Positions 13,725 to 35,954 of a DNA stretch of 43,770 nucleotides are shown here, piece after piece (within the stretch, counting starts at the first letter, position 1; each line of letters begins with the position of its first letter). The DNA comes from Candidatus Omnitrophota bacterium (GTDB lineage: Bacteria; Omnitrophota; Gorgyraeia; Zapsychrales; JBDRMG01). Position numbers and translations under genes: made by a program. The notes under the pieces are model-generated. The model was not told the origin of the DNA. It made no database searches and saw only the letters and a program-made list of their open reading frames with translations. The DNA is taken from contig JBDRMG010000047.1 in the NCBI GenBank assembly GCA_043812495.1, positions 1-43,770 of the forward strand, in the 5' to 3' direction.

Positions 13725-13751
13725 AATCAAAGGATAGAGTTAAGGGATCAT

Positions 13752-15271: not shown

Positions 15272-15708
15272 TGAGCATTAAATTACAGGCTTTATTAAAA
15301 TCGCCGTGGGTCTTTCATATGTCGACGGGAAGCTGCAATAATTGCGACATTGAAGTCCTCGACTGCTTAACGCCCCGTTTTGACATTGAGCGATTTGGGA
15401 TTCTTCTTGTGGGAAGCATTAAGCACGCGGATGTTCTTCTGGTCACGGGTTCCGCGAATCGAAAATGCATTCCGCGCATCAAAAAGATTTATGAACAAAT
15501 GCCCAAGCCCTGTTTGGTGGTCGCGATCGGCGAATGTTCGCTTTCTAGGGGCATGTTTATTCAGAGTTACAATTGTCCTGTGCCTGTGGACAAAATTATT
15601 CCCGTGGATGCCTATATTCCGGGGTGTCCCCCTAAACCCGAAGCGATTATTTCAGCTGTGGTAAAATTGATCACAAAAGTCCAAGAGCAAGCAAAGGCCA
15701 AAAAATGA
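15271..15708 (+). CDS. Group 4 [NiFe]-hydrogenase small subunit (NuoB/MbhJ-like)
   Basis: GSCNNCDIE, HADVLLVTG, IGEC, YIPGCPPKP (four cluster Cys). Confidence 0.93.
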   Translation: MSIKLQALLKSPWVFHMSTGSCNNCDIEVLDCLTPRFDIERFGILLVGSIKHADVLLVTGSANRKCIPRIKKIYEQMPKPCLVVAIGECSLSRGMFIQSYNCPVPVDKIIPVDAYIPGCPPKPEAIISAVVKLITKVQEQAKAKK

Positions 15709-16178
15709 CAAAAGGCGAAATTTTACAAGATTTAGGGATACGTTTTAAGGATGATATTATTGATATTTTCGATAAATCTCCAAAAAGGGTTTATATCGAG
15801 ATCAACCCCAAGTCCATCAAAAAAATTGCCCAATATGTTTTTAAAGACTTAGAAGCGCGATTCAATATCGCCTCCTGTGTTGACGTGCGGACCCATTTTG
15901 AAATTTTATATCACTTTACCATCGAACCCATAAATCTTTTGATTTCCTTTCGCGTTAAATTAGACAGAGAAAAACCCGAAATCGATTCATTGACCTTTTT
16001 GATGAAAGGGGCGGATTGGATCGAGCGCGAAATGTGGGAAATGCTCGGTATCAACTTTATCGGCCATGCGGACCTGAAGCGTTTGCTTTTGCCCGACGAA
16101 TGGCCGCAAGGCGTGTATCCTTTGCGCCGTGATTACAAGGAATGGGATGACTCCGCCGTGAGAGATAGAGGAGTGTAA
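15705..16178 (+). CDS. NuoC/MbhK-like subunit
   Basis: ADWIEREMWEMLGINFIGH.DLKRLLLPDEW...YPLRRD. Confidence 0.92.
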   Translation: MTKGEILQDLGIRFKDDIIDIFDKSPKRVYIEINPKSIKKIAQYVFKDLEARFNIASCVDVRTHFEILYHFTIEPINLLISFRVKLDREKPEIDSLTFLMKGADWIEREMWEMLGINFIGHADLKRLLLPDEWPQGVYPLRRDYKEWDDSAVRDRGV

Positions 16179-16184
16179 AAGTGA

Positions 16185-16237: not shown

Positions 16238-16247
16238 AAACTTGCTT

Positions 16248-17423: not shown

Positions 17424-19075
17424 TGTTTGGCGGCGAACTGTTTAAAATCGATAATCTTTCAACTTTTATAGGGATCTTTATTGTCTTCTTCTCTGCCTTG
17501 ACCATCCTTTATTCTTCGGGTTTCATGCAAAAGAAGAAGGGTCTGCTGCGTTATTATCTATATATCGTTTTAACGACTCTTGCATCTGTCGGCGCTGTTT
17601 TTGCCAATAATCTTATTTTGCTGATAGTTTTCTGGGGATTTTTAGGACTTCTTCTTTATCTTTTAATCGGCTTTGGGGAGAAAGAAAGGACCTCTGATAC
17701 AGCTAAGAAGGCATTTATTATTATTGGAGGCACGGATGCCTTGATGCTATTAGGGTTGACTTTTGTATGGCATCTGACAAATTCATTTCTAATGAATGAA
17801 ATGAGCATAAAATTAGATTCTCGCATTGCCGTCTGGGCTTATCTGTGTCTAGCAGCTGGCGCATTTGCCAAGGCTGGGGCCATGCCGTTTCATACATGGG
17901 TTCCAGATACAGCAGAAGATGCGCCTACACCTGTTGCGGCCTTTTTACCGGCTTCTCTTGATAAACTTCTAGGAATATATTTCCTTGCAAGAATCTCACT
18001 GGATGTATTTCAGATGGACGCAAGCATGAATACATTTTTAATGGCATTGGGGAGCTTTACAATCATTGCTGCTGTTATGATGGCTCTTGTGCAGCATGAT
18101 TTAAAACGACTTTTGGGATATCATGCGGTTAGTCAAGTGGGATATATGATTTTAGGCATCGGAACAGGAAATCCGATTGGCATCGCAGGCGGTCTATTTC
18201 ATATGCTCAACAATGCCGTTTATAAATCATGCCTCTTCTTTTCCGGCGGTGCCGTGGAAAGAAAAACCGGTACAACCGATTTAGATAAGCTGGGTGGATT
18301 TGCGAAAATTATGCCGATAACATTTACAGCCTTTTTGATTGCGTCCTTGGCTATCTCGGGCATTCCACCCTTAAATGGTTTTGCCTCCAAATGGATGATT
18401 TATCAAGGCATTATTAAAGCAGGACGTACAGGTCACTCTCTTTGGATTATCTGGCTTTTGGCCGCTATGTTCGGGAGCGCCCTGACACTGGCAAGCTTTA
18501 TGAAGCTGATTCATGCCGTATTTCTCGGGCAATCGGCCAAAGAAAGAATGATCAAAGACGATCAACCGCAGGAGACGTCTTTTTCCATGTGGTTTCCGTC
18601 TGGCATCCTTGCCTTTCTTTGTGTTGTTTTCGGCGTATTCGCCTACAGAATACCTCTTCAAATGTATATATTTCCGAGTTTAAACCAGTCCGTGTATTTT
18701 GGCGGCGTATGGAATGCGAGCCTAGCGACGGTTCTCCTATTGATTGGTATCGTCATCGGTTTTATTATTTATCTTCTTGGGGCCGCGACAAAGTCACGGC
18801 AAGTAGAACCCTTTGTTGGCGGAGAAGATTTGAGCAAGCATCCGGATATGAGGCTATCGGGAACAGGATTTTACAACACGATTCAGGACATTGGTTTACT
18901 CAAAGGGATTTATGCCTTGGCCGAGAAAAAGTTTTTTGATATTTATGAGGTGGGCAGCAAAATAACATTTGGGCTCAACAAAATGCTACGGTATATTCAT
19001 AACGGCGTGCTGCCCACGTATTTATCCTGGTGCCTGTTGGGGATGTTGATCCTCTTTTGGGTTTTGTTTACATAA
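17423..19075 (+). CDS. NuoL/MrpA-like ion-translocating subunit
   Basis: KAGAMPFHTWVPD..EDAPTP, KRLLGYHAVSQVGY, FHMLNNAVYKSCLF, LGG, SGIPPLNGFASKW. Confidence 0.9.
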   Translation: MFGGELFKIDNLSTFIGIFIVFFSALTILYSSGFMQKKKGLLRYYLYIVLTTLASVGAVFANNLILLIVFWGFLGLLLYLLIGFGEKERTSDTAKKAFIIIGGTDALMLLGLTFVWHLTNSFLMNEMSIKLDSRIAVWAYLCLAAGAFAKAGAMPFHTWVPDTAEDAPTPVAAFLPASLDKLLGIYFLARISLDVFQMDASMNTFLMALGSFTIIAAVMMALVQHDLKRLLGYHAVSQVGYMILGIGTGNPIGIAGGLFHMLNNAVYKSCLFFSGGAVERKTGTTDLDKLGGFAKIMPITFTAFLIASLAISGIPPLNGFASKWMIYQGIIKAGRTGHSLWIIWLLAAMFGSALTLASFMKLIHAVFLGQSAKERMIKDDQPQETSFSMWFPSGILAFLCVVFGVFAYRIPLQMYIFPSLNQSVYFGGVWNASLATVLLLIGIVIGFIIYLLGAATKSRQVEPFVGGEDLSKHPDMRLSGTGFYNTIQDIGLLKGIYALAEKKFFDIYEVGSKITFGLNKMLRYIHNGVLPTYLSWCLLGMLILFWVLFT

Positions 19076-19076
19076 T

Positions 19077-19637
19077 ATGATTGAACTTTATATCCTTCTT
19101 ATTTTTATGATTGTCGGCGCGGCCATTGCGATCGAAGTCAAAGATTTGCTGTCTTCGGTTGTAGCCGTGGGCGCCGTTGGCTTGGCGCTGTCCATTACAT
19201 TTCTCATCTTGAAAGCGCCTGATGTGGCGATTACGCAATTGGTGGTTGAGTTACTGGCACTCATCATTCTGATTCGGGCGACACTCAAAAAGGACCTTCC
19301 TTTTTCTACGTCGGGTCGATGGTTTGTCAATACCTTGATCACTATTGTTTTTATCTTGGGCTTTTTGGCTGTGGCCATGATTTCTTTGAAGGACTTGCCT
19401 TCCTTTGGTTACCCGACGATGAGAGTGGCCGAAACCTATTTGAAAGAAGGCCTCATGCGCACCGGCGCGACCAACATCGTAGCTTCGGTCATTCTGGACT
19501 ACCGGGCCTTTGATACCTTAGGCGAAGTAACGGTCCTCTTTACGGCCGTGATTGGTGTTTTGGCGATTGTGCGAAGAACCGGACGAAAAAAAGAAGGACA
19601 AATCATAGAGGACGAGGATGAGTCCAGCCCTTCCTAA
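19077..19637 (+). CDS. MbhD/MbhE-like (MrpA C-terminal, DUF4040) membrane subunit
   Basis: LKAPDVAITQ and NIVASVILDYRAFDTLGE motifs. Confidence 0.88.
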   Translation: MIELYILLIFMIVGAAIAIEVKDLLSSVVAVGAVGLALSITFLILKAPDVAITQLVVELLALIILIRATLKKDLPFSTSGRWFVNTLITIVFILGFLAVAMISLKDLPSFGYPTMRVAETYLKEGLMRTGATNIVASVILDYRAFDTLGEVTVLFTAVIGVLAIVRRTGRKKEGQIIEDEDESSPS

Positions 19638-19721
19638 GAAGGGCAGGATGCGCGAATCTAAAGACAAGGAAGAAAACGCGTGAGATGGACAAAAATCAAA
19701 GATACCTAAGGGAAGGGCTGG
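19624..19721. mobile_element. 98-bp MITE-like insertion with 11-bp terminal inverted repeats and 6-bp target duplication
   Basis: CCAGCCCTTCC (19624-34) / GGAAGGGCTGG (19711-21), flanked by ATGAGT at 19618-23 and 19722-27. Confidence 0.8.
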
Positions 19722-20174
19722 ATGAGTAGAGAACACGAAAAAGGAATGTCTCTGATCGTCAAGACCATTACGCGCTTGACCGTAGGCCTTATCCTTCTTT
19801 ACGGAATTTATATTTTATCGCACGGCCATGTGTCCCCGGGTGGCGGTTTTGCCGGTGGGGTCATCATTGCCCTGTCCTTTGTTCACTTGATGCTGGCGTA
19901 CGGAAAAGAGACGGCCTTGGCCAAGCTCTCTAAGGGCGCCACGTCATTTTTTGAGAGCATGGGCGCGATTTTATTTCTGGCCATTGCCCTTTTAGGGTTT
20001 ACGGGAGGATACTTCTTCTTGAATTTTCTCGGCAAGGGTGAGCCCTTTAAGCTCTTTAGCGCCGGGATTATTCCGCTTGCGAATATCGCGATCAGCTTAA
20101 AAGTCGGGGCCGGGCTTTTTGCCATATTCGTGGCTTTAGTTTTGCTGAAATTTGATTCGGAGGATAAAGGATGA
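19722..20174 (+). CDS. mnhB: Mrp/Mnh antiporter subunit B (MbhF-like)
   Basis: HGHVSPGGGFAGG motif. Confidence 0.9.
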   Translation: MSREHEKGMSLIVKTITRLTVGLILLYGIYILSHGHVSPGGGFAGGVIIALSFVHLMLAYGKETALAKLSKGATSFFESMGAILFLAIALLGFTGGYFFLNFLGKGEPFKLFSAGIIPLANIAISLKVGAGLFAIFVALVLLKFDSEDKG

Positions 20175-20286
20175 TGCATTCGATTGCACTTATCTCGTGC
20201 CGAGCAACAAAAATAATTAAGCACTCGATACGAGGGAGCATCATGGTGAGCGACAAATTTTATATTTTAAATGGAGAAGCCGAACC

Positions 20287-20625
20287 ATGATTCTTTATCT
20301 ATTGTGCTTGATTCTTTTCTGCGAAGGCCTCTATTGCATCCTGCGCAAGCGCAATATTATCAAAATTATTGTCGGCGTGATCATCGCCGAATATGCCGTG
20401 AATCTGTTCTTCATTTTGATTGCGTACCGCATGGGGGGCCGTTCGCCGATTTATTCTCCGGATGCGACGATCGTCAACATGGTGGATGCCCTTCCGCAGG
20501 CCGTTGTTCTGACCTCTATTGTCATTGGCTTGGCCTCGACTGCTCTTTTGGTCGCCTTGGCTATGCGTATTTATGATAAGTATGGGACATTCAATATTAC
20601 CAAGATCAGGGAATTAAGAGGATGA
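20287..20625 (+). CDS. mnhC: Mrp/Mnh antiporter subunit C (MbhG-like)
   Basis: NIIKIIVG, VDALPQAVVLTSIVIG. Confidence 0.9.
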   Translation: MILYLLCLILFCEGLYCILRKRNIIKIIVGVIIAEYAVNLFFILIAYRMGGRSPIYSPDATIVNMVDALPQAVVLTSIVIGLASTALLVALAMRIYDKYGTFNITKIRELRG

Positions 20626-22127
20626 TCCAAGAAATCAATATTATTCCGTTTTTTGTGGTTATCCCCTTAGCCGCTTCCTTTCTTGTATCCATTGTCAGGG
20701 AAAAAAGCAAGTGGATGCCGGATTTTCTCGGGATTACGGCTACGGCGGCACTATTGGTGGCTTCGCTATTTTCCGTTAAAATCGTGAATGTATTAGGAAC
20801 ACTTGTCTACAGTGTCGGCGCGTGGAAACCGCCTTTTGGCATCGCTTTGGTCTTAGACGGACTTACTTCCTTTATGTTGGTAACGGTGAATCTAGTCGCT
20901 TTCGCGATCGCCCTGTACTCGATTCAATACATGACGCAGTATACATCCAAGTGGAAATTTTACACTCTCTTTCTTATGATGCTGGCCGGCATGAACGGCG
21001 TCATTGTCACGGGTGATATTTTCAATCTCTTTGTTTTCTTGGAAATCGCTTCGGTCGCAAGTTACGCGCTCGTTGCCTTTGGAACCGAAAAACATGAGCT
21101 GGAAGCCGCTTTTAAATATGCCGTGATGAGCACGGTCGGGTCTTTGTTTATTCTTTTAGGGATTGTCTTGCTGTACAGCTTTACATCGACGCTGAACATG
21201 GCGGATATGGCCGGTGTGTTGGCGCAAAAGGCCGGAAGCAATATTGTCTTGATGGTGAGTGCTTTATTTATTATGGGCTTTGGTCTTAAGGCAGCGCTTG
21301 TGCCTTTTCATGCATGGCTTCCGGATGCGCATCCTTCAGCCCCTGCGCCTATCTCAGCAATGCTTTCAGGCGTTTTAATAAAATCACTCGGCGTGTATAC
21401 CTTGTGCAGAATATTCTTCAATGTCATTGGCATAAGTCCGGCCGTATCTTCTATCCTGTTACTTTTAGGAACGCTCTCTATGGTCGTTGGTGGATTGTTA
21501 GCCATCGGACAATGGGATTTCAAGCGACTTTTGGCCTACTCGTCGATCAGCCAAATTGGCTACATTATTTTTGCGATGGGTTTGGGTACACCACTTGGTA
21601 TTATGGGTGCGCTCTTTCATCTTTTTAATCATTCTGTATTTAAATCATTACTCTTTTTGAATTCAGGCGCTGTTGAATATGCAACAGGAACTCGCGATTT
21701 AAAGAAGATGGGAGGTCTCGCCGCTAAGATGCCTGTGACAGGTACAACGTCTCTCATCGGATCTATGTCCATTGCAGGGATCCCTCCATTTAGCGGTTTT
21801 TGGAGTAAACTGCTTATTATTATTGCAGCTGTTCAAGCGGGCCGCTATGGATGCGCCTTCTGGGCCATTTTGGTCAGCATATTAACGCTTGCGATGTACA
21901 TGAAGATTATGAAATATGCCTTTTATGGTCGCTGTAAAGAAAAAGAGGGCCAAATAAAAGAAGTGCCGATCTTTATGAGATTGTCCATGTTGGTTTTAGC
22001 ATGCATCTGTTTGATGGGAGGAATTTTACTTATTCCTGGTATCAGCGATGTGTTTCTTCAAAGGGCTTCTGATGTCGTTACAGGAGGCGTTAACTACGCA
22101 CTGATCGTTTTTAAGAATTTACAATAA
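20622..22127 (+). CDS. mnhD: Mrp/Mnh antiporter subunit D (MbhH-like)
   Basis: GDIFNLFVFLEI, EAAFKY, KAALVPFHAWLPDAHPSAP, KRLLAYSSISQIG, GIPPFSGFWSK. Confidence 0.92.
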   Translation: MIQEINIIPFFVVIPLAASFLVSIVREKSKWMPDFLGITATAALLVASLFSVKIVNVLGTLVYSVGAWKPPFGIALVLDGLTSFMLVTVNLVAFAIALYSIQYMTQYTSKWKFYTLFLMMLAGMNGVIVTGDIFNLFVFLEIASVASYALVAFGTEKHELEAAFKYAVMSTVGSLFILLGIVLLYSFTSTLNMADMAGVLAQKAGSNIVLMVSALFIMGFGLKAALVPFHAWLPDAHPSAPAPISAMLSGVLIKSLGVYTLCRIFFNVIGISPAVSSILLLLGTLSMVVGGLLAIGQWDFKRLLAYSSISQIGYIIFAMGLGTPLGIMGALFHLFNHSVFKSLLFLNSGAVEYATGTRDLKKMGGLAAKMPVTGTTSLIGSMSIAGIPPFSGFWSKLLIIIAAVQAGRYGCAFWAILVSILTLAMYMKIMKYAFYGRCKEKEGQIKEVPIFMRLSMLVLACICLMGGILLIPGISDVFLQRASDVVTGGVNYALIVFKNLQ

Positions 22128-22128
22128 G

Positions 22129-22626
22129 ATGAAAAAGAAAATCACTCTTTTTATTATTGCATTTTTTACTTGGTGTCTTTTAAGCTGGGTGCCGGATTGG
22201 CAGCATTTAAGCGTGGGTGTTTTTGTCGCTCTTTTTGTCTCTTTGATAACAGGTGATTTGTTTATTCAACGGCCTGATCTTTTGAAACACCCCAAGCGAT
22301 ATTTCTATTTCTTCTTTGTTTATATGCCTGTCTTTACGTGGGAAGTCTTAAAAGCCAATATCGACGTCGCTTATCGCGTTTTGCATCCGCAGCTTCCCAT
22401 TCATCCGGGAATCGTTAAGGTGAAAACCTCTTTGCAGTCGGATACAGCATTGACATTTTTAGCGAATTCTATCACCTTGACCCCCGGAACCATGAGCGTT
22501 GATATTGACCGGGATAATGGTATTTTGTACATACACTGGATTGATGTCAAGGCCAAGGATACGGAAACAGCAACTAAAATCATTGTTGAGCGCTTTGAGA
22601 AAATATTAAAAATGATTTTTGATTAG
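22129..22626 (+). CDS. mnhE: Mrp/Mnh antiporter subunit E (MbhA-like)
   Basis: ANIDVA, PGIV, LANSITLTPGT, LYIHWI. Confidence 0.93.
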   Translation: MKKKITLFIIAFFTWCLLSWVPDWQHLSVGVFVALFVSLITGDLFIQRPDLLKHPKRYFYFFFVYMPVFTWEVLKANIDVAYRVLHPQLPIHPGIVKVKTSLQSDTALTFLANSITLTPGTMSVDIDRDNGILYIHWIDVKAKDTETATKIIVERFEKILKMIFD

Positions 22627-22638
22627 GCTAGGTGATTT

Positions 22639-23007
22639 ATGAAACACTTGAAATGGTTGATAGGGGCTGTGCTTTTGATCGGTGTTGTGGTCGTAATTAT
22701 CACAAGACCCTTTCCTTTTCTTTTTTATCCAGGTCTTCCTTATCTTGCATTCTTAGGAAGAGCCCTGTACATTCTGATCCTTGCTTGCATCATGTGTCTT
22801 TATCGTATAGGAAAAGGGCCGACAGGAGCAGATAGAATTGTTGCCGTAGATATCCTTGGCATTATGATTGTAGGGTTATGTGCTATTTTGACGATTTCAA
22901 CCGGCCGATCTTGGTACATTGATATTGGCATTGCATGGGCCCTTCAGAGTTTTATTAGCACGCTGGCTTTGTCCAAATATTTAGAGGGGAAAGGTTTTGA
23001 TGAATAA
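22639..23007 (+). CDS. mnhF: Mrp/Mnh antiporter subunit F (MbhB-like)
   Basis: GPTGADRIVAVD, YIDI, SFISTLALSKYL. Confidence 0.9.
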   Translation: MKHLKWLIGAVLLIGVVVVIITRPFPFLFYPGLPYLAFLGRALYILILACIMCLYRIGKGPTGADRIVAVDILGIMIVGLCAILTISTGRSWYIDIGIAWALQSFISTLALSKYLEGKGFDE

Positions 23008-23335
23008 TATCATCGGATTAGTTTTTATTAGCTTTGGCTTGGCCTTTGATCTTTTTGGGTGCCTAGGGCTTGTCCGTCTTCCGGATGTCTATAATCGCCT
23101 GCAGGCTGCCACCAAATGCGTGACCATGGGCACGTGCAGCATTCTTTTCGGAACATTCTTGATGGTTGGATTTACCGCCGCTGGCCTCAAGTCGCTTTTG
23201 TGTATGATTTTTCTTATATTAACAGCGCCTGTGGCGGCGCATGCTATCGCTAGGGGCGCGCACAGAGCCGGTGTCAAACTTTGGAGCGAAAGCGTTGTCG
23301 ACCAATACGCACAAGATAAAGAAGGCGAAGCATAG
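23000..23335 (+). CDS. mnhG: Mrp/Mnh antiporter subunit G (MbhC-like)
   Basis: GLVRLPDVYNRLQAATK, LTAPVAAHAIAR. Confidence 0.93.
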   Translation: MNNIIGLVFISFGLAFDLFGCLGLVRLPDVYNRLQAATKCVTMGTCSILFGTFLMVGFTAAGLKSLLCMIFLILTAPVAAHAIARGAHRAGVKLWSESVVDQYAQDKEGEA

Positions 23336-23336
23336 G

Positions 23337-23456
23337 AAATTCCAAATTTAAAATGACAAATGTCAAATAAATTCCCAGTGACCAATGCCCAACTGAAAAA
23401 AATATTGGAAATTTGAAATTTGACATTTATTTGAAATTTTTTATTGGACATTTGAC
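23337..23456. repeat. Heptamer-periodic inverted array
   Basis: AAATTCC/AAATTTA/AAATGAC/AAATGTC units mirrored by GAAATTT/GAAATTT/GACATTT units. Confidence 0.7.
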
Positions 23457-23459
23457 GTT

Positions 23460-24068
23460 ATGAAATTACCTAAAGTAAGAGAACTCATCGAAGCCATCAA
23501 AGCCCTCATTAAAGGGCCTTACACGTCGAAATTTCCCAAAGAACCCCATGTGGCCCATCCGAATTTCCGCGGTCAACCCAAATACAACGAACAAAAATGT
23601 GTGGGATGTCTCGCCTGCGAAGAGGTCTGTCCGGTGTACGCCATCGCCCATAAAGATACCGTTGAAAACGGCGTAGCCAAAAGAACCGTGATTCACTACT
23701 CTGATACCTGCATTTTCTGTAGCCAGTGCGAAGCGGCTTGCATTGCCGACCATGAAGGAATCAAACTGTCGAACGATTGGGACCTGGCCTTTTTTGACCG
23801 GTCAAAAAGTTTTGAAACCATTGATAAAGAGCTGCAGCTCTGTGAGGTTTGCGGTTGCGTGATCGCCTGCAAAGATCATCTGAAATGGATAGCCGAAAAG
23901 ATCGGCGAATTGACGTATTCTAACCCCACCCTCTATCTTTCCCGCCTCAAAAGCCTTGGCATCACAGATGAAAATATCGTTACGGTCCTCAAAGACCAGG
24001 GTCGATCCGATCGCGTCAAGATATTATGCGCCCGTTGTCGACGAGAAACAACCCTGACAACGAAATAG
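23460..24068 (+). CDS. NuoI/MbhN-like 2x[4Fe-4S] subunit with extra C-terminal Cys pairs
   Basis: FRGQP, CVGCLACEEVCP, CIFCSQCEAAC, then CEVC...CARC. Confidence 0.9.
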   Translation: MKLPKVRELIEAIKALIKGPYTSKFPKEPHVAHPNFRGQPKYNEQKCVGCLACEEVCPVYAIAHKDTVENGVAKRTVIHYSDTCIFCSQCEAACIADHEGIKLSNDWDLAFFDRSKSFETIDKELQLCEVCGCVIACKDHLKWIAEKIGELTYSNPTLYLSRLKSLGITDENIVTVLKDQGRSDRVKILCARCRRETTLTTK

Positions 24069-24083
24069 AAACTCCCTAAAGAA

Positions 24084-24560
24084 ATGGATAAAAACTTAAA
24101 GGACATCTGGAAAGGCCGCGTGGTCATGGTCGGCATCGGAAATCCTTTGCGCGGCGATGATGCCTTTGGGCCGGAACTCATCGCGCGCTTAAAAGGGAAG
24201 ATTTCTGCGGCATGCATCGATGCGGGGAGCGCACCTGAAAGCTACACAGGGAAGATCATCAAGGAAAATCCCGACACGATTATCTTAGCCGATGTTGCGC
24301 ACTTGGATTTGCCTCCGGGCGACTATCAGATTCTCCAAAAAGAGGAAATCCTCAAAAGCGGACTCACGACCCATGATTTGTCGCCGCGAATGTTTGTTGA
24401 GTATCTTGAAAGTCAAACAAAGGCGAAAATCTGCATGCTTGGCGTTCAACCAAAAACAGTTTCTATGGGAGAAGAGATGTCGGGGGAAATCAAAGATTTC
24501 TTAAATAAAATGACAAAAATGATACAGGAGATAGACGATGCACGAAACACACTTAATTGA
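24084..24560 (+). CDS. hycI: Hydrogenase maturation endopeptidase (HycI-type)
   Basis: GIGNPLRGDDAFG, DAGSAPE, TTHDL, LGVQP. Confidence 0.9.
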   Translation: MDKNLKDIWKGRVVMVGIGNPLRGDDAFGPELIARLKGKISAACIDAGSAPESYTGKIIKENPDTIILADVAHLDLPPGDYQILQKEEILKSGLTTHDLSPRMFVEYLESQTKAKICMLGVQPKTVSMGEEMSGEIKDFLNKMTKMIQEIDDARNTLN

Positions 24561-24780
24561 GCCCATCATAAAGGGAATATCACAACACGCAGAAAAAGAG
24601 AATGCCCTTAAGGTGACAAAAGTTAAATTGAGAGTCGGCCAGTTGATAGGGACAACTGAAGACTCTTTTAAAGAGACATTTGCTTTATTGGCCAAAGGGA
24701 CCAAATGCGAAGGCGCAGAGGTGGAAATTACTTTTTTCCCAGGCTCGACGGTCAAAGTGATTTCATTTGATGTTGACTGA
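24538..24780 (+). CDS. hypA: Short HypA nickel metallochaperone lacking the zinc-finger domain
   Basis: MHE N-terminus, V..V.LRVGQL, F.LLAKGT.CEGA.VEI; no CxxC...CPxC. Confidence 0.85.
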   Translation: MHETHLIEPIIKGISQHAEKENALKVTKVKLRVGQLIGTTEDSFKETFALLAKGTKCEGAEVEITFFPGSTVKVISFDVD

Positions 24781-24797
24781 AATATTTCTATTAAATT

Positions 24798-24905
24798 AAA
24801 CGCAGATACGCGCAGATCAAACGCAGATGATCGCGGATTAAAAATTTATTAGATCATACAATCTGCGTAAATCTGCGTGCAATTTGCGTTAATCCGCGTT
24901 TAAAG
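24798..24905. repeat. CGCAGAT/ATCTGCG palindromic array; 24820-24905 is the inverted copy of 10553-10638
   Basis: Three CGCAGAT units then ATCTGCG-like units; 83/86 identity to the other copy. Confidence 0.9.
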
Positions 24906-24927
24906 ATTTAATTTCAAGATAAAGACT

Positions 24928-26229
24928 ATGTGCTACGCCATTCCCGGAAAAGTCAAAGAGATCAAAGGCAATTTCGCCATTGTGGATTATTTCGGCGAAG
25001 AGAAAAAAGCCCACAATGAGATGCGCGATCTTGTTGTCGGGGACTACGTTTACGCTCAAGGCGGGTTTGTGATTCGCAAAATTTCGCAAAAAGAAGCCCA
25101 AGAAATACTTTCCGCCTGGAAAGACATGTTTTTCGCGCTCCAGGAGGTGGATGTCCGGCTCTCAAAGCTTGATCAAAAAGAAAGAAAAGTTGATAAAAAA
25201 GTCAGCCGAATTTTAGATCGCGCTCTCGAAGGCCTTGTGCCTAAAAAAGAGGACCTTTTAACTTTGATGAACTGTGATGATCGCCCAAGCCTTGAGCTGC
25301 TTTTTCAGACAGCCAATTTCCTACGGCAGAAATACCACAAAAATTCCTGCTGTGTTCACGGCATTCTCGAAATTTCCAATTATTGCAAACAGAATTGTTG
25401 CTATTGCGGCATTTCCGTCCACAATAAAGTTCTCAAACGTTACCGCATGACGCATGATCAGATTGTCGCAAGCGCTATTGAGGCCATTGAGGTCCACGGC
25501 TTCAAAGCCCTTGTCCTTCAAAGCGGGGAGGATCCGGGTTATTCCGTCGAGGAAATGGCCGAAACAATCCGCGAAATCAAGCAAAAAGCCCCCTGCCTGA
25601 TTTTTATCAGCTTTGGCGAAGTGGGCCGGGATGGTTTGAAGAAACTTTATGAAGCCGGAGCGCGTGGCCTCCTTTTGCGTTTTGAAACATCAAATCCAAA
25701 GCTTTACCAAACCCTTCATCCCGGCCGATCACTTGAAACGCGCTTAGAAGATATCCGCGCAGCTTTTGACATGGGTTACATTATTATTACAGGCGGCCTG
25801 ATTGGCTTGCCGGAACAAACCAACGAAGACATTGTTGATGGTATTCTTTTGGCCAGGAATCTTCATACAGAAATGTACAGCTTTGGACCGTTTTTGCCGC
25901 ATCCCGAGACGCCCTTAGCGGACAAAAAACCGATCGAAGAAACAACCATGTTAAAAGTATTAGCCTGCGCTCGCCTCGTTGACCCCAAAGATTCAAGAGT
26001 CCTGATTACAACGGCTTTTGAGACATTGAGTATGGATGCGCGAAAAAAAGGGTTGCTTGCAGGGGGCAGCTCTGTGATGCTGAATGTGACTCCCGTCGCT
26101 TATCGCGAACAGTATGACATTTATCCCAACCGCATGTATAAGCAAACAGAAATTCAGAACCAAATCAAAGAGACCATCAGGCTTTTAGAATCCCTGGGCC
26201 GTGCCCCCACAGATTTAGGTGCCCGCTAA
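24928..26229 (+). CDS. hydE: HypC domain fused to HydE-like radical SAM enzyme
   Basis: Residues 1-~66 MCYAIPGKV...AIVDYFG...VGDYVYAQGGFVIRKI...EA match HypC; remainder has EISNYCKQNCCYCG (CX3CX2C), RYRM, VLQSGED, LLRFET, GLPEQT, GPFLPHPETPL, TTA, VMLNVTP..YR..YDIY as in HydE; one uninterrupted ORF. Confidence 0.85.
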   Translation: MCYAIPGKVKEIKGNFAIVDYFGEEKKAHNEMRDLVVGDYVYAQGGFVIRKISQKEAQEILSAWKDMFFALQEVDVRLSKLDQKERKVDKKVSRILDRALEGLVPKKEDLLTLMNCDDRPSLELLFQTANFLRQKYHKNSCCVHGILEISNYCKQNCCYCGISVHNKVLKRYRMTHDQIVASAIEAIEVHGFKALVLQSGEDPGYSVEEMAETIREIKQKAPCLIFISFGEVGRDGLKKLYEAGARGLLLRFETSNPKLYQTLHPGRSLETRLEDIRAAFDMGYIIITGGLIGLPEQTNEDIVDGILLARNLHTEMYSFGPFLPHPETPLADKKPIEETTMLKVLACARLVDPKDSRVLITTAFETLSMDARKKGLLAGGSSVMLNVTPVAYREQYDIYPNRMYKQTEIQNQIKETIRLLESLGRAPTDLGAR

Positions 26230-26314
26230 AATGATTGATCTCTTGACGCTGAAGCGATATTATGTTACGTTTGTCGAGGAAGGAAAGCAAAATAAACAAA
26301 TATGGAGGTGAAAG

Positions 26315-26605
26315 ATGTGCTACACAGTACCTGCGGCAGGTGCAATCGTCACAACCGTCATGTGGAGCAGAACCAAAGATGTTAAATTATGGTGGTTGAA
26401 TCTTTTATTTTGGGGCGGAGCTCTTTTTGGCCTCATTGATCATTGGTGGAATGGGGAATTATTCTTTGTCGGCGAACACATTGTGAGTGACTTGCTTTTA
26501 GGCGTCACCATAACTCTTGCCATCTTCATTTTCTGGAAAATTATGATGGCCAAAAGCAAAACTCATCCCACGCTCGCGAACTATATCAATATCAAGAATT
26601 CCTAA
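26315..26605 (+). CDS. Small three-TM hypothetical membrane protein
   Basis: GGAGG RBS; hydrophobic segments; MCY start and GGALFGLIDHWWNGE motif. Confidence 0.75.
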   Translation: MCYTVPAAGAIVTTVMWSRTKDVKLWWLNLLFWGGALFGLIDHWWNGELFFVGEHIVSDLLLGVTITLAIFIFWKIMMAKSKTHPTLANYINIKNS

Positions 26606-26683
26606 GATCGCAAAAACCTAGCAGAATTTTCTTGCGCATTCTTTTGTCTTTTGACAAGGCGATCAAAATACGGAGGACACAAT

Positions 26684-27463
26684 ATGGATTGGGGAATGGA
26701 AAACAGGCTGGATAATTTAATGCCCAAAGGCAAATGTTTTTTTATGCCCATCGATCACGGATATTTTCAAGGACCCACCACGGGATTGGAAAAGCCGGGT
26801 GAAACCGTAGCCCCTCTTTTAGAATATGTGGATGCCCTGTTTTGCACGCGGGGTGTTCTGCGCGCGGCCATTGATCCCGTCAAAAGCAAGCCCATTGTTC
26901 TGAGGGTTTCCGGCTGCACAAGCATGGTGGGTGAAAATTTAGCGAATGAAGAACTGACGACATCCGTTGATGATATTATCCGTCTCAATGCGCAGGCCGT
27001 CGGTGTTTCCGTTTTTATCGGAAGCGCCTATGAAAAACAAACGCTTAAGAATTTGACAACCATGGTGAATAGCTGCGAACCATACGGTATTCCCGTGATG
27101 GCTGTGACGGCCGTCGGAAAAGAAATGGAAAAACGCGAAGCACGCTATCTGGCGCTCTGTTGCCGTATCTGCGCTGAGCTGGGCGCCAAGGTCGTTAAAA
27201 CCTACTGGTGCGAAGATTTTGAAAAGGTTGTGCAAGGATGTCCCGTGCCCGTCATCATGGCAGGTGGACCAAAATGTAAAACGGAAAAAGAAGTCTTTGA
27301 ATTTGTATCCGACGGTATGCAAAAAGGCGCTGTGGGAATTAATTTAGGGCGAAATATCTGGCAGAATCCAAATGCCGTTAGTATTGCCAAGGCCTTACGC
27401 GCTATTGTGCATCAAGGCGCTAATGTCCAGGGCGCCGTGGGCATATTTAATTCCAAAAAATAA
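26684..27463 (+). CDS. lsrF: LsrF-like class I aldolase/thiolase (DhnA family)
   Basis: IDHGYFQGPTTGLE, LRVSG, AVTAVGKEM, CRICAELGAKVVKTY (Schiff-base Lys), AGGPK, GRNIWQ; GGAGG RBS. Confidence 0.85.
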   Translation: MDWGMENRLDNLMPKGKCFFMPIDHGYFQGPTTGLEKPGETVAPLLEYVDALFCTRGVLRAAIDPVKSKPIVLRVSGCTSMVGENLANEELTTSVDDIIRLNAQAVGVSVFIGSAYEKQTLKNLTTMVNSCEPYGIPVMAVTAVGKEMEKREARYLALCCRICAELGAKVVKTYWCEDFEKVVQGCPVPVIMAGGPKCKTEKEVFEFVSDGMQKGAVGINLGRNIWQNPNAVSIAKALRAIVHQGANVQGAVGIFNSKK

Positions 27464-27470
27464 AAGACGT

Positions 27471-28451
27471 ATGAAGGTCGCCAAATACTACAATAACAAC
27501 GATATCCGCATCGAAGAGATCCCAAAACCGAAAATCCATGACGGAGAAATTCTAGTTCAGGTCAAAGCCAGTGGTATTTGCGGTACCGACGTCATGGAAT
27601 GGTACCGCATCAAGAAAGCCCCCCGTATCCTCGGCCACGAAATTGCCGGCGATATCGTTGAATCCAAATCCAAAAAATACAAAGTCGGCCAGCGCGTTTT
27701 TGTCAGCCATCACGTTCCGTGCAATACATGCAAATATTGCTTAGAAGGCCACCACACGGCTTGCGATACTTTGCATACGGGCAATTATGACCCCGGCGGA
27801 TACAGTGAATACGTCCGGGTGCCGAAGCTGAATGTCGAGCGGGGTGTTTATGTCCTGCCGGACAATGTTTCCTACGACGAAGGGACCATGATTGAGCCTT
27901 TGGCTTGTGCCGTAAGAGCTTTGCGCGTCATCGACTTAAAAGAAAGTCATACGGTCCTCATTCTGGGAAGTGGGATCTCCGGCCTTCTCAACATCATGCT
28001 CGCCAAATTAAACAAAGCCAAAGTTATAGCCACCGACATCCATCCCTATCGACTGAAAAAGGCAAAAGAATTCGGCGCCGATGAGGTGATCGATGTTGCC
28101 AAGGAAAAGCTAAATGTTAAAGCTGATCGCGTTATTATCTGCACAGGCGCCTATCAAGCGGTCGAACAAGCCTTTGCTTGCGTCAACAAAAAAGGAATTA
28201 TTCTTCTTTTTGCGATTCCCAATCAAGACATCAAAATTCCCATTCCGGATTCATGGAGAAATGAAATAACCATTACGTCATCTTACGGTGCTGCGCCAGC
28301 TGATCTCAAGGAAGCCTTGAATCTCATCCAGACAAATCGAGTGAATATCAAAGACACCATTACCCATAAGTTACCCCTCGAACGCATTCAGGAGGGATTC
28401 AAGATCATGACAGACGCCAAGGAATCCTTAAAAGTTGTGATTGAGCCATAG
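27471..28451 (+). CDS. Zinc-dependent alcohol/polyol dehydrogenase
   Basis: GICGTD, GHEIAG, CNTCKYC......C, EPLAC, GSGISG. Confidence 0.92.
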   Translation: MKVAKYYNNNDIRIEEIPKPKIHDGEILVQVKASGICGTDVMEWYRIKKAPRILGHEIAGDIVESKSKKYKVGQRVFVSHHVPCNTCKYCLEGHHTACDTLHTGNYDPGGYSEYVRVPKLNVERGVYVLPDNVSYDEGTMIEPLACAVRALRVIDLKESHTVLILGSGISGLLNIMLAKLNKAKVIATDIHPYRLKKAKEFGADEVIDVAKEKLNVKADRVIICTGAYQAVEQAFACVNKKGIILLFAIPNQDIKIPIPDSWRNEITITSSYGAAPADLKEALNLIQTNRVNIKDTITHKLPLERIQEGFKIMTDAKESLKVVIEP

Positions 28452-28467
28452 AAAATTAGGGAGTGTA

Positions 28468-29058
28468 ATGATGAACAAAAAGCTAATTTTTCTCTTAATA
28501 ATTATTTTCATTTTGTGTTTTAGCGGATTGGTTCTGGCGGATAAGGAAGCTCCAAACAGCGTTTATATAAAATCTTCTGAATATGGCAGTCTGTATGCTA
28601 AATCCATTCCGGATGAGCCCTACGGCTCTAAAGGCAAAACATTGATCTATTCTGTTAACCCTAAAGACGGTGCCGAGCAGCTTATTACCACTTATGATTG
28701 GTATTCTCAAGAAATATATCTTTTACACACCGGCGCATTAGTTAGAATAGGCCCTTGGGCAGGCGGCCGCAAAGCGAATAAGGAGGACTTTGCCATTGGT
28801 TTCTACAATGGAGGTCTGACGCGCAAAGAATACTCTACCTTAGATATCGCAGGTCGTGAAGATAATGTATGGGCAAGCGTATCTCATTACAGAGTCTTTA
28901 AGAAAATCCTGGGATTTCGCATAGAAGGTGGCGATGATGCCATTTTAGATAATGAATATTTCGTCTTTGAGGCAGAGACGATTGACGGCCGGAAACTCGC
29001 CTTTGATTTTAATACAGGAGAAATTCAAGCTGCCCAAACACCGATAATGAATCATTAG
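28468..29058 (+). CDS. Secreted hypothetical protein
   Basis: Signal peptide (KKLIFLLIIIFILCFSGLVLA); GGGAG RBS; no family recognised. Confidence 0.65.
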   Translation: MMNKKLIFLLIIIFILCFSGLVLADKEAPNSVYIKSSEYGSLYAKSIPDEPYGSKGKTLIYSVNPKDGAEQLITTYDWYSQEIYLLHTGALVRIGPWAGGRKANKEDFAIGFYNGGLTRKEYSTLDIAGREDNVWASVSHYRVFKKILGFRIEGGDDAILDNEYFVFEAETIDGRKLAFDFNTGEIQAAQTPIMNH

Positions 29059-29083
29059 ACGGTCTCCCTGAAGAATTAAATTC

Positions 29084-29135
29084 TTGCAATATTCCTGAAG
29101 TCCGATATACTATTTAATCGTTCAAAATTTCACGA
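29084..29135 (+). promoter_or_regulatory. rex-hydG promoter with Rex-like operator
   Basis: TTGCAA (29084-89)-N16-TATACT (29106-11); TCGTTCAAAATTTCACGA (29118-35). Confidence 0.75.
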
Positions 29136-29146
29136 TTAATGAAGAC

Positions 29147-29195
29147 GCAACTTACGGAGTCCGCCATTGTTTTTGTGGCGGACTCCGTAAGTTGC
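29147..29195. repeat. 20-bp perfect-stem palindrome (REP-like), related to 39549-39598
   Basis: GCAACTTACGGAGTCCGCCA / TGGCGGACTCCGTAAGTTGC. Confidence 0.85.
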
Positions 29196-29208
29196 TGACT
29201 GAATTAAC

Positions 29209-29311
29209 CCCCCACCACTTTTAGAAACAACCGTTTATTAAAAAGCGATGGGGATTGGATGATAGAACCCTTTAATTTTTAAGACAACTCTGTTACTAAA
29301 AGTGGTGGGGG
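29209..29311. repeat. 103-bp element with 16-bp terminal inverted repeats in the rex leader
   Basis: CCCCCACCACTTTTAG (29209-24) / CTAAAAGTGGTGGGGG (29296-311). Confidence 0.8.
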
Positions 29312-29323
29312 ATCAAGACAACT

Positions 29324-29956
29324 ATGAAAAAAGTCTCCAAAAAAACCATTGACCGGGCCCTTTTGTACATGCGGATTCTCGAGGGACTCATCAAAGAGAA
29401 ACGCAACCTTATCAGCTCCGGACAGCTTGCGGATATAGCGCAGACAAGCGATGTCCAGATCCGCAAGGATATTTCCCATTTCGGTAAAGTGGGCACCCCG
29501 CGCCTGGGTTACAACACCAAGGAGCTCAAAAAGATCCTTGAAGACTTCATTCTGCAGGAGAACGTGGTGCGCGTGGTTCTCTTTGGCGTCGGGAACTTAG
29601 GAACCGCCATTATCAAATATCCCGGCTTTCATAAAGGCAAGGTCAAAATGATCGCGGCCTTTGAGAAAGACGCGCAGAAAATCGGGAAGAAAATCAATAA
29701 TTTGACGATTTACCCAATCGAGCGGGCCCCCGAGGTGATCCGCAAGACCAAGGCGCATATCGGCATCATTGCCGTGCCCAAGGAATACGCCCAAGAGGTG
29801 GCTGATCTCATAGTGCTTTCGGGCTTGCGCAGCATTATTAATTTTGCGCCGGAATCGATTACAGTTCCTAAAAATGTTTTGGTCAAGGATATCGACTTGA
29901 CCATTGAATTCTTATCTCTCTTTTGTAATACACAGAGGGTTAAAAATGACAGTTGA
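29324..29956 (+). CDS. rex: Redox-sensing transcriptional repressor Rex
   Basis: ISSGQLA...QIRKDISHFG..GTPRLGY winged helix; GVGNLG Rossmann motif; IIAVP..AQEVAD, NFAP. Confidence 0.95.
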   Translation: MKKVSKKTIDRALLYMRILEGLIKEKRNLISSGQLADIAQTSDVQIRKDISHFGKVGTPRLGYNTKELKKILEDFILQENVVRVVLFGVGNLGTAIIKYPGFHKGKVKMIAAFEKDAQKIGKKINNLTIYPIERAPEVIRKTKAHIGIIAVPKEYAQEVADLIVLSGLRSIINFAPESITVPKNVLVKDIDLTIEFLSLFCNTQRVKNDS

Positions 29957-31442
29957 AGCATTAAGAAAAGCACCGTGGATTCAGGAGCGCATCAAGCCCG
30001 AAGAAATTACAAAATATCTGAAGGATGGGCAGGATTTTATCTCGGATCAGCGTATCCTGGAAACTCTCAAAGACAATAGCCGGCCGGATCCTCAAAAAGT
30101 CAAAGACATTTTAGCTAAATCTTTAGACATTCAAACCCTTCAGCTCGACGAGGCCGCTTGTCTTTTGAATGTCGCGGATCCTTTGCTGCTTGATGCAATG
30201 AAGCAAACAGCCCTGGCAATCAAGAAAAAAGTCTACGACAACAGGATCGTGACATTTGCACCGCTTTATTTGGGAAATTTTTGCGTCAACAACTGTCTTT
30301 ATTGTGGATTCAAAAAAGATAACACAGATGCCAAGCGTAAGGTGCTGAGCCAAGACGAAATTAAGGAAGAAATCAAAATGCTCGCCGGAAGAATCGGTCA
30401 TAAAAGACTGATTGTGGTTTACGGTGAACATCCCCGTAATGATGTCGATTATATCATCAAAAGTATTCGAACGATTTATGGTGTTGAAATCAAGACGAAA
30501 AACGGCACCGGAAATATCCGCCGGGTCAATGTCAATGCTCCGCCGTTTTGCGTCGAAGACCTTAAAAAATTACACGAAGTCGGCATCGGCACGTATCAGG
30601 TTTTCCAAGAAACCTATCATCATGACACCTACGCAAAAGTCCATCCGCAAGATACGATCAAAGGCCATTACCAGTGGCGTTTATATTGCATGCATCGGGC
30701 GTTTGAGGCGGGTATCGATGATGTCGGCATCGGCGCTCTATTTGGACTATATGATTGGAAGTTTGAAGTCATGGGACTTCTTTGTCATGCCCGCGAACTG
30801 GAAAATACATTCGGCATTGGTCCGCATACGGTGTCTTTTCCCCGGCTTGAACCGGCTGCCCATGCACCATTAACGGAAAACTCACGGTATCGCGTTTCGG
30901 ATGACGATTTCAAGAAACTCATTTTAGTTTTGCGCTTGTCCATTCCCTATACGGGCATGATTATCACGGCCAGGGAAAACGCCGAAATGCGACGGGAAGC
31001 TATTGAAATGGGTGTAACGCAGACGGATGCTTCGCCTAAAATCGGTATCGGATCCTACGCAAAAGGCCAAAGCGGTCAGGACAAAGATAAGCAACAGTTC
31101 ATACTCGGAGATACGCGCAGTCTTGATGAAGTGGTTCGAGAATACGCGAACATGGGTTACATCACATCTTTCTGCACCGCCGGATATCGATGCGGACGCA
31201 CGGGAAAATGCATCATGGATCTTTTGCGAAGCGGCCAAGAAGGTAAATTCTGCAAACTCAATGCCGTCTTGACATTCCGTGAATGGCTCAATGATTTTGC
31301 AAGTGATACAACAAAAGAAGTCGCCGAGCCTGTAATTCAAAAAGAAATCCAAGAAATCAAACTTAAGATGCCGAAAATCTTTCCCAAATTTGTTGCTACC
31401 TACGAGCGAATCAAAAACGGCGCTCGGGATCTCTACTTCTAA
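29946..31442 (+). CDS. hydG: [FeFe]-hydrogenase maturase HydG (tyrosine lyase making CO/CN)
   Basis: RIVTFAPLYLGNFCVNNCLYCGF, GHKRL, GNIRRVNVN, GIGTYQVFQETYH, GIDDVGIGALFGLYDW, GPHTVSFPR; C-terminal CX5CX19C auxiliary-cluster motif; overlaps rex stop. Confidence 0.93.
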   Translation: MTVEALRKAPWIQERIKPEEITKYLKDGQDFISDQRILETLKDNSRPDPQKVKDILAKSLDIQTLQLDEAACLLNVADPLLLDAMKQTALAIKKKVYDNRIVTFAPLYLGNFCVNNCLYCGFKKDNTDAKRKVLSQDEIKEEIKMLAGRIGHKRLIVVYGEHPRNDVDYIIKSIRTIYGVEIKTKNGTGNIRRVNVNAPPFCVEDLKKLHEVGIGTYQVFQETYHHDTYAKVHPQDTIKGHYQWRLYCMHRAFEAGIDDVGIGALFGLYDWKFEVMGLLCHARELENTFGIGPHTVSFPRLEPAAHAPLTENSRYRVSDDDFKKLILVLRLSIPYTGMIITARENAEMRREAIEMGVTQTDASPKIGIGSYAKGQSGQDKDKQQFILGDTRSLDEVVREYANMGYITSFCTAGYRCGRTGKCIMDLLRSGQEGKFCKLNAVLTFREWLNDFASDTTKEVAEPVIQKEIQEIKLKMPKIFPKFVATYERIKNGARDLYF

Positions 31443-35938: not shown

Positions 35939-35954
35939 TACCAATTAATAAACC

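Follow-up and report, generated by a model that had tools for sequence, protein, structure and literature searches.

A HypC-HydE-like fusion protein and HydG as candidate replacements for the HypCDEF machinery of [NiFe]-hydrogenase maturation in Omnitrophota

In a 43,770-nucleotide stretch of DNA from a Candidatus Omnitrophota bacterium (assembly GCA_043812495.1, contig JBDRMG010000047.1, positions 1 to 43,770), hereafter the window, a single long hydrogenase gene cluster on the + strand (11776-26229; assigned with Pfam and NCBIfam) encodes a group 4 [NiFe] hydrogenase and ends in three maturation genes, namely hycI, hypA, and a gene that joins HypC to a domain resembling HydE, a radical S-adenosylmethionine (SAM) enzyme, with an intact hydG about 3.7 kb further on (Table 1). 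A first-pass annotation of the window had described this order, and each element lies where it was placed. The same annotation had reported HypB, HypD, HypE, HypF, HydF and HydA as missing from the window; they are missing, and in profile searches none rose above cutoff in the whole source genome either (1.94 Mb in 66 contigs, 90.5% complete). To our knowledge, every [NiFe] hydrogenase is considered to obtain its Fe(CN)2(CO) unit through the HypCDEF pathway, while cleavage of tyrosine to an Fe-CO-CN synthon is the established chemistry of the HydG family. We describe below the fusion, its genomic setting and its distribution, and argue that HydG and the fusion are likely to replace HypC, HypD, HypE and HypF in building and delivering the iron-carbonyl-cyanide unit of [NiFe] enzymes.

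The large subunit encoded in the window has the features of a group 4 enzyme: an N-terminal (RICGICSTSH) and a C-terminal (DPCYCCTER) ligand motif, a cleavable 32-residue C-terminal extension, a Complex1_49kDa-type fold, and Mrp/Mbh partners. Since both ligand motifs and an extension cleavable by a HycI-type protease are present, it is taken to be a genuine [NiFe] enzyme that requires the Fe(CN)2(CO) unit; orthologues with 80-86% identity occur in 14 other genomes. The fusion protein consists of a HypC beta-barrel (residues 1-64, with Cys2), a helical linker, and a radical SAM triosephosphate isomerase (TIM) barrel with its CX3CX2C motif at C153, C157 and C160. Residues 1-64 match the HypC models PF01455 (60.3 bits; cutoff 28.5) and TIGR00074 (52 bits; cutoff 48), the N-terminus reads MCYAIPG, the HypC Cys2 is invariant in the 23 fusions compared, and residues 1-71 align with Thermococcus kodakarensis HypC (2Z1C) at 48 bits. 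The best NCBIfam match of the whole protein is to HydE (TIGR03956) at 239.1 bits, slightly below the 254.6 cutoff, and residues 106-428 align with Thermotoga maritima HydE at 228 bits over nearly the entire length of the latter. Of 119 relatives listed for the fusion, 118 have both the HypC and the Radical_SAM Pfam domain (58-71% identity), so the fusion is no chance reading frame; every source label among these 119 that names a phylum names Omnitrophota. An AlphaFold model of the whole fusion predicts one compact body (mean predicted local distance difference test, pLDDT, 90.9; predicted template modelling score, pTM, 0.90), in which the HypC beta-barrel, a long helix (54-78) and the TIM barrel follow one another. 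Docking of the HypC domain (1-80) on the HydE domain (100-433) as separate chains gave a median score of 0.46 (best control, 0.01), with runs sharing at least 87% of contacts and a partner pLDDT of at least 78. Of 157 solved complexes 116 pass the docking mark, as do 2 of 215 mismatched pairs, and scores up to 0.60 take in only 18 of the 157 complexes and both mismatches that passed, benchmark counts that apply only roughly here, where a custom alignment was used.

The HydE-like half was examined residue by residue and in a tree, with 23 fusion domains set against 18 unfused Omnitrophota HydEs. HydE residues are given in native T. maritima numbering (the chain index of 7O1O equals the native number plus 10; as a check, all ten residues named in the papers cited below land on the correct amino acid), and C141, C142, H144, F226, R246 and G247 in that of the window fusion. 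One long branch separates the 23 fused domains from the 18 unfused HydEs (Shimodaira-Hasegawa-like approximate likelihood ratio test, SH-aLRT, 100), and two unfused paralogs score 292 and 360 bits on the HydE model TIGR03956. The radical SAM cysteines, E58, L157, M224, T269 and M291 are kept in all 23 fusions and V105 in 22, with K309 replaced by R in the window protein, so that the radical SAM site and substrate pocket of HydE are in place. The S3 or product site is not: R54, T134 and R155 have become H144, F226 and G247 in the window fusion, and R54 is H, T134 is F, L, C or I, and R155 is G or A in all 23 fusions, as against R, T and R in 18/18 unfused HydEs. The fusions have in turn an invariant CCxH motif (C141, C142, H144; 23/23 versus 0/18) and an arginine moved by one position (D154 to R246), and they lack the cysteine aligned to native position 311, which we take to be an auxiliary-cluster ligand and which is present in 14 of the 18 unfused HydEs. 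According to the accessible part of PMC11826987, R54, T134, R155 and T269 are polar residues that touch the CN ligands of the di-iron product, and M224 and M291 are the methionines that hold the Fe(I) units; the accessible part of PMC10114646 describes an S3 site of one threonine and two arginines, mutation of which impairs maturation. The residues altered in the fusions are those to which these accounts assign CN-ligand contact and the S3 site, respectively. The fused domain is thus, judged by its sequence, a diverged paralog of HydE and not HydE proper, a qualification to the annotation's "HypC-HydE fusion", which otherwise stands in that both HypC and HydE-like domains are present.

Since hyp genes cluster and one lost contig could account for their absence from a single assembly, the question was tested across genomes. 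A sample of 201 Omnitrophota genomes contained 24 with the fusion, 22 recognized by matches starting at residue 1 and two with a shorter linker (G133 and G057) by Pfam; a second sample, of 151 genomes from the phylum of G202 (its record is labelled Spirochaetota, its own placement not being given), contained seven with a full-length fusion. In all, 33 fusion genomes were identified, one of them G201, whose record is titled complete chromosome. None of the 33 has HypD, which is present in 50 of the 177 other Omnitrophota genomes and in 50 of the 144 others of the second sample, and these 100 clear matches in non-fusion genomes, nearly all with E <1e-120, serve as a control for the model. Six families hold both fusion and HypD genomes, with no genome having both. 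HypE is above cutoff in 0/33 fusion genomes (426 bits in the control genome, G143) and HypF in 0/24 Omnitrophota ones, where the best match is 43 bits. The annotation's proposed genome-wide search for these genes in the source and its relatives thus bore out their absence. The source genome lacks the canonical HypD, HypE and HypF set: HypD, HypB and the [FeFe] catalytic domain have zero matches there, and the matches to the HypE, HypF and HydF models, far below cutoff, are to unrelated paralogs (GTPases, aminoimidazole ribonucleotide (AIR) synthase-like and Kae1-like proteins). G201, a 1.52 Mb Omnitrophota genome, has the fusion and one HydG, with 0 matches for HypD, HydF and HydA and a best HypE match of 36 bits.

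A short HypF escaping the cutoff was considered, and rejected. G143 has a HypF of only 353 residues, Kae1-like throughout, that scores 262.6 bits, less than the 466 cutoff, and the HypF_C_2 domain (PF22521) was therefore searched in four of the fusion genomes. All four, G201 included, gave only partial matches of 26-38 bits, compared with 252 bits for the true HypF of G143; the 38-bit match in G201 spans 77 of 241 model positions, over the 27-bit Pfam cutoff. The G143 protein itself (L044:4092-5153) corresponds to positions 391-739 of the 741 in the full HypF model and is devoid of the acylphosphatase, zinc-finger and YrdC parts, and a second partial HypF_C_2 match lies elsewhere in that genome (G143:C1:191439-192020).

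HydG was found in 31 of the 33 fusion genomes (above cutoff in 94 of the 201 Omnitrophota genomes overall, in 22 of the 24 with the fusion, and in 7/7 of the second sample). HydA and HydF were assessed in the Omnitrophota sample, G201, and one of the seven second-sample fusion genomes. Of the 201 genomes 85 have the [FeFe] catalytic domain (HydA), and so do 11 of the 24 with the fusion; HydF is above cutoff in nine of these 11 and split across two contigs in a tenth. Neither HydA nor HydF was found in the other 13, the source genome among them, nor in G201, which accordingly lack the HydF and HydA target of canonical [FeFe] maturation; yet HydG is above cutoff in all 13, and in ten it is adjacent to the fusion, one gene away from it, or fused to it. 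The absence of HydF and HydA, first annotated for the window, therefore holds for the source genome, 13/24 fusion genomes and G201, and fails for the remaining 11, whose HydA shows that the fusion can occur alongside an ordinary [FeFe] system and does not exclude it. Eight of these 11 have a separate unfused HydE, which adjoins HydG in seven (not in G165). Where there is an [FeFe] system, the single HydG sits with it and presumably serves both. Complete hypDEF plus hydA/hydF, a finding that the annotation had named as fatal to its proposal, occurs neither in the source genome nor in most genomes carrying the fusion.

Closely related hydrogenases are found with either maturation set. A large subunit at least 63% identical to that of the window is present in 38 of the 201 genomes, nine of them with the fusion, 28 with HypD and a single one, G140 (77% complete), without either; at 80-86% identity there are seven fusion and six HypD genomes, and the ligand motifs are letter-for-letter identical between the two kinds. 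The HypD-type locus of G143 reads Fer4-HycI-HypA(80 residues)-HypF(short)-HypC-HypD-HypE-NikR and the fusion loci Fer4-HycI-HypA(80 residues)-HypC::HydE-(Rex)-HydG, the fusion and HydG occupying the slot of HypF-HypC-HypD-HypE, an in-place swap drawn from this one compared HypD locus. A [NiFe] large subunit was present in 25/25 genomes tested, and in 23 of the 24 Omnitrophota fusion genomes the fusion has genes of a [NiFe] hydrogenase as neighbours. In 14 of the fusion genomes the neighbouring enzyme has a large subunit of 441-489 residues along with Fer4_22, gamma-like and small subunits; HycI and the fusion come next, in many cases with HydG after them. From its sequence this enzyme is read as group 3b-like and soluble. 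The fusion thus follows two [NiFe] classes, group 4 Mbh/Mrp and group 3b-like soluble. Most group 3b-like fusion loci have the 80-residue HypA, with none in four and a 124-residue HypA in one (G092). Furthermore, HypC, the HydE-like domain and HydG form a single open reading frame (ORF) of 915 residues in G155, a two-contig genome, and of 921 residues in G201, and such three-domain ORFs are a classic sign of parts working together. Mutual exclusion with HypD, co-occurrence of the fusion with HydG (31/33) and with adjacent [NiFe] genes (23/24), and position in the locus all support the annotation's suggestion that HydG and the fusion stand in for HypDEF. In G125, a 610-residue ORF (L036:4194-6026) fuses large subunit and HycI, the protease being joined to the C-terminus that it should cleave.

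HydG of the window is of the authentic type. Its residues 39-512 align with residues 16-480 of Thermoanaerobacter italicus HydG (4WCX), full length, at 436 bits; the radical SAM CX3CX2C reads CVNNCLYC at residue 127, and the C-terminal auxiliary-cluster domain lies within the match. Residues 422-450 (31167-31253) read C-T-A-G-Y-R-C, where we take CX2CX22C to be the canonical auxiliary-cluster motif; the middle cysteine, presumably a ligand of that cluster, has moved three positions. The form C-T-A-G-Y-R-C-G-R-T-G is found in 25 of the 34 Omnitrophota HydGs examined (window, L082-L101), as compared with C-x-A-C-Y-R in solved HydG. As a mark of a HydG dedicated to [NiFe] enzymes it was rejected, the variant and canonical forms numbering 9 and 4 in [FeFe]-only genomes, 7 and 1 in genomes with both systems, and 9 and 4 in fusion-only genomes; its presence in 9/13 HydGs of [FeFe]-only genomes makes it a lineage variant compatible with normal function.

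Between the fusion stop at 26229 and hydG lie a 96-residue ORF, an LsrF-like aldolase, a zinc-dependent alcohol dehydrogenase, a 205-residue ORF and rex, and Rex adjoins the fusion/hydG region in six other genomes. The first four of these genes (26315-29058), the 205-residue product being secreted-looking and the LsrF-like thiolase/aldolase matching NF006081 at 340 bits, have no counterpart in other fusion loci and look like an insertion into the maturation cluster. No extra conserved component emerged from the ORFs near the fusion: those at 26315-26605 and 28441-29058, neither with a Pfam or NCBIfam match, and the roughly 237-residue ORFs of G160, G200 and G150 do not form one family. A membrane protein of about 237 residues with a His-rich loop stands beside the maturation genes in fusion and HypD genomes alike (L026:7638-8357, L024:5953-6666, L043:7406-8119). 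It matches DsbD_2 weakly (27 bits), is probably a nickel transporter, and was rejected as a component of the system, since a HypD genome has it too.

The accessory genes hycI and hypA precede the fusion. HypA of the window starts with MHE, the nickel site, but its 80 residues contain no CxxC pair, the zinc domain (CxxC...CxxC) of full HypA being missing. The 80-residue form (window 24538-24780, L044:5155-5397, L021:8512-8754, L056:5755-5997) is shared by fusion loci and the HypD-type G143 locus, and is therefore independent of the maturation swap. Whereas hypA and the fusion are a few bases apart at other loci, 147 bp separate them in the window. This spacer was considered as a regulatory site and rejected, because it is a copy of a dispersed hairpin-forming repeat with units of about 10 bp of the ACGCAGAT type (window 10557-10639, 24796-24903, 34130-34149, 35848-35939), whose 20-mer pattern has 11 matches in the window against 0.06 expected; the hairpin repeat is outside the maturation system. 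At the other end of the operon, Fer4_22 and gamma-like FAD/NAD subunits (11776-13648), typical of soluble group 3b-like operons, precede the Mbh/Mrp hydrogenase, an arrangement shared by G150 and one that suggests a membrane-bound hydrogenase coupled to NAD(P)H. Immediately upstream of the operon (8523-11393, - strand) are genes for FeoB and for an iron-dependent repressor of the DtxR type, and in G133 FeoA and FeoB directly adjoin HydG and the fusion (L041:10468-12560); this proximity may reflect a link between iron import and synthon synthesis.

Table 1. Hydrogenase and maturation features of the window, with the evidence for each assignment.
Feature	Position	Strand	Evidence
Operon start: Fer4_22 protein (11776-12831), FAD/NAD-binding gamma-like subunit (12821-13648), Fer4_11 ferredoxin (13707-14351)	11776..14351	+	Pfam
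NuoH-like membrane subunit; [NiFe] small subunit (Oxidored_q6, 15268-15708); 30-kDa subunit (15705-16178)	14126..16178	+	Pfam
Group 4 [NiFe]-hydrogenase large subunit, 393 residues	16242..17423	+	Pfam, NCBIfam, motifs
Mrp/Mbh-type membrane module (antiporter-like subunits, MbhD/E, MnhB, 4L, MnhE, MrpF, MnhG)	17423..24068	+	Pfam
2x[4Fe-4S] ferredoxin subunit, last gene of the 17423..24068 block	23460-24068	+	Pfam
hycI, large-subunit C-terminal endopeptidase	24084..24560	+	PF01750 51 bits; TIGR00072 100 bits (cutoff 47.45)
Short hypA, 80 residues, nickel-binding N-domain only	24538..24780	+	PF01155 model positions 1-69 of 112
Inserted hairpin repeat between hypA and the fusion	24796..24903	.	44-nt inverted arms; DNA fold -25.4 kcal/mol, z -4.08
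hypC::hydE-like fusion, 433 residues	24928..26229	+	PF01455, TIGR00074, Radical_SAM, BATS, TIGR03956
rex, redox-sensing repressor	29324..29956	+	NF003995 205 bits
hydG, radical SAM tyrosine lyase	29904..31442 (likelier ATG start 29946)	+	TIGR03955 466.4 bits (cutoff 312.15)

From these genes and residues we infer a chemistry in three parts, ligand supply by HydG, a reaction in the HydE-like domain, and hand-off by HypC. HydG, as its gene leads one to expect, would cleave tyrosine and build, at its dangler iron, a synthon of the form Fe(CO)x(CN)y-cysteine, making tyrosine, not carbamoyl phosphate, the source of cyanide. The HydE-like domain would then take up the synthon in its conserved pocket and, as HydE does, direct the 5'-deoxyadenosyl radical at the cysteine sulfur, a step suggested by the conserved residues. 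Canonical HydE pairs two Fe(I) units at its S3 site; the rebuilt site of the fusion (R54 to H, T134 to a hydrophobic residue, R155 to G or A, and the CCxH motif) may instead keep the unit mononuclear and serve as a scaffold similar to HypD. Cys2 of the tethered HypC would take the unit and insert it into the large subunit, in keeping with the function of the HypC family, after which the short HypA and HycI, whose genes are at hand, would add nickel and trim the C-terminus. In cells that have an [FeFe] hydrogenase as well, the same single HydG would also feed the separate unfused HydE and HydF. More tentatively, and with the balance of likelihood slightly against so specific a version, the fusion may be a self-contained replacement of HypC, HypD, HypE and HypF, in which CCxH (Cys141-Cys142-x-His144) and Cys2 form the HypD-like iron scaffold that turns the tyrosine-derived Fe(CO)2(CN)-cysteine synthon of HydG into mononuclear Fe(CN)2(CO) and loads at least two classes of large subunit.

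Several points weigh against replacement of the Hyp proteins by HydG and the fusion. The characterized HydG product carries two CO and one CN (PMC10114646, in its accessible part), opposite to the one CO and two CN of the [NiFe] site, and this mismatch requires that a CO-to-CN exchange or a different stopping point of HydG be assumed. In canonical HydE chemistry, moreover, the sulfur of cysteine stays bound to the iron, a sulfide that has no counterpart in the [NiFe] site. At the locus, hydG sits 3.7 kb away, past five unrelated-looking genes, and the hairpin repeat parts hypA from the fusion; because of this gap and repeat, co-transcription is not evident in the window. G162 (89% complete) yielded no HydG and G108 only a contig-end fragment of it, and in G133 the fusion and HydG lie away from hydrogenase genes. 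Two-domain fusions of other genomes score 216-267 bits on the HydE model, 20 of 22 below its 254.6 cutoff, and the docking lends weak support to a specific predicted interface between the HypC and HydE-like domains. All genomes except one closed chromosome are metagenome bins, and since related genomes are not independent, the exclusion counts overstate their statistical weight. Lastly, the evidence consists of sequences and predicted structures.

Other explanations were weighed. That HypD, HypE and HypF are present and were overlooked through assembly gaps or divergence has in its favour the fragmented source assembly (90.5% complete, 66 contigs), from which clustered hyp genes could vanish with one contig; this idea is close to refuted by the lack of HypD in all 33 fusion genomes, G201 with its record of a complete chromosome and the two-contig G155 included, by a model with 100 clear matches elsewhere, nearly all at E <1e-120. 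It is very improbable, too, that fusion genomes carry [NiFe] hydrogenases in decay, relics for which maturation is no longer needed. Relics might explain a source genome without HypB and with a truncated HypA, but the 80-residue HypA occurs in the HypD-type G143 locus as well, HycI and HypA have been kept, and the large subunits, 80-86% identical to those of HypD genomes, share the same ligand motifs and retain an intact C-terminal extension.

The fusion and HydG could mature another, unrecognized iron-carbonyl enzyme, the [NiFe] centre being supplied by some other route or by a partner organism; Omnitrophota are described as host-dependent, small-genome bacteria, which counts for this idea, as does the position of the G133 genes away from those of hydrogenases. 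We nonetheless regard it as quite improbable, given that the fusion occupies the HypFCDE slot after HycI/HypA in 23/24 genomes and with two hydrogenase classes, includes a HypC domain with invariant Cys2, and never occurs together with HypD. Unlikely as well, if the least so of these rivals, is that HydG and the fusion supply only part of the centre, CO for example, with cyanide coming from an unrecognized enzyme other than HypE/HypF. The anaerobic source of CO in the Hyp pathway is not known to be settled, and partial supply would avoid the mismatch between two CO and one CN. HydG also reportedly releases free CO and CN (a study cited in the accessible part of PMC10114646). Against this, the scaffold HypD is missing alongside HypE and HypF (0/33, 0/33 and 0/24), HydG makes cyanide anyway, and the surroundings of the fusion revealed no additional conserved gene.

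The probable replacement of HypCDEF by HydG and the fusion points to an undescribed way of making the iron-carbonyl-cyanide cofactor of [NiFe] hydrogenases. No description of a HypC-HydE fusion or of HydG-dependent [NiFe] maturation was found in the literature searched (subscription journals lay outside it), nor in the accessible parts of PMC9431212, PMC11216029, PMC10114646 and PMC11826987, in agreement with the first-pass annotation, which knew of no such pathway. The proteins are each of known family origin (HydG proper, a HydE paralog, a HypC domain), and the system combines two known kinds of maturation. If the proposal is true, it would constitute a fourth hydrogenase-maturation scheme, built from parts of two known ones, with tyrosine in place of carbamoyl phosphate as the origin of cyanide and with an experimentally tractable anoxic source for the CO ligand of the [NiFe] centre. 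The accessory set for heterologous production of a [NiFe] hydrogenase would drop from six proteins to about four (HydG, the fusion, HypA and the protease), and genome surveys would have misread these lineages if they take a lack of hyp genes to mean a non-functional [NiFe] enzyme, or hydG/hydE by themselves to mean [FeFe] metabolism. Should the more tentative scaffold version hold, all three diatomic ligands of the [NiFe] site would derive from tyrosine, [NiFe] and [FeFe] maturation would share an interchangeable core, and a minimal system of two proteins would allow a direct test of where the [NiFe] CO ligand comes from under anaerobic conditions.

Among known systems, the HypCDEF pathway of Escherichia coli, T. 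kodakarensis and Ralstonia eutropha has the same target, a large subunit with CxxC pairs and a C-terminal extension, the same downstream action of HypA and then a HycI-type protease, and the same HypC delivery module with N-terminal Cys2. It differs in that HypD, HypE and HypF are absent here, HypC is fused to a radical SAM enzyme, and cyanide would come from tyrosine. With the HydE/HydF/HydG pathway (T. maritima HydE, T. italicus HydG), the present system shares an authentic HydG, of the same types as in [FeFe]-only genomes, and a HydE-like domain in which the radical SAM cluster is preserved along with E58, V105, L157, M224, T269 and M291 of the pocket. Unlike in that pathway, HydF and HydA are lacking in 13/24 fusion genomes, and the HydE-like domain is tethered to HypC, has its S3 site replaced, and has gained CCxH. 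The HmdB/Hcg system, which makes the iron-guanylylpyridinol (FeGP) cofactor of [Fe]-hydrogenase, likewise uses a HydE-like radical SAM enzyme for a mononuclear Fe-CO cofactor, and some fusions match the HmdB model TIGR03957 weakly (74-92 bits, far under the 320.9 cutoff); the neighbourhood of the fusion, however, has no Hmd or Hcg genes, its neighbours being those of [NiFe] hydrogenases. HypX, described in the accessible part of PMC6802093 as the aerobic CO-ligand synthase of O2-tolerant [NiFe] hydrogenases, is comparable as an accessory route that gives the [NiFe] centre a diatomic ligand from an unusual precursor, but whereas HypX supplements HypCDEF and provides CO only, the pairing of HydG with the HypC-HydE-like fusion appears to replace HypDEF entirely.

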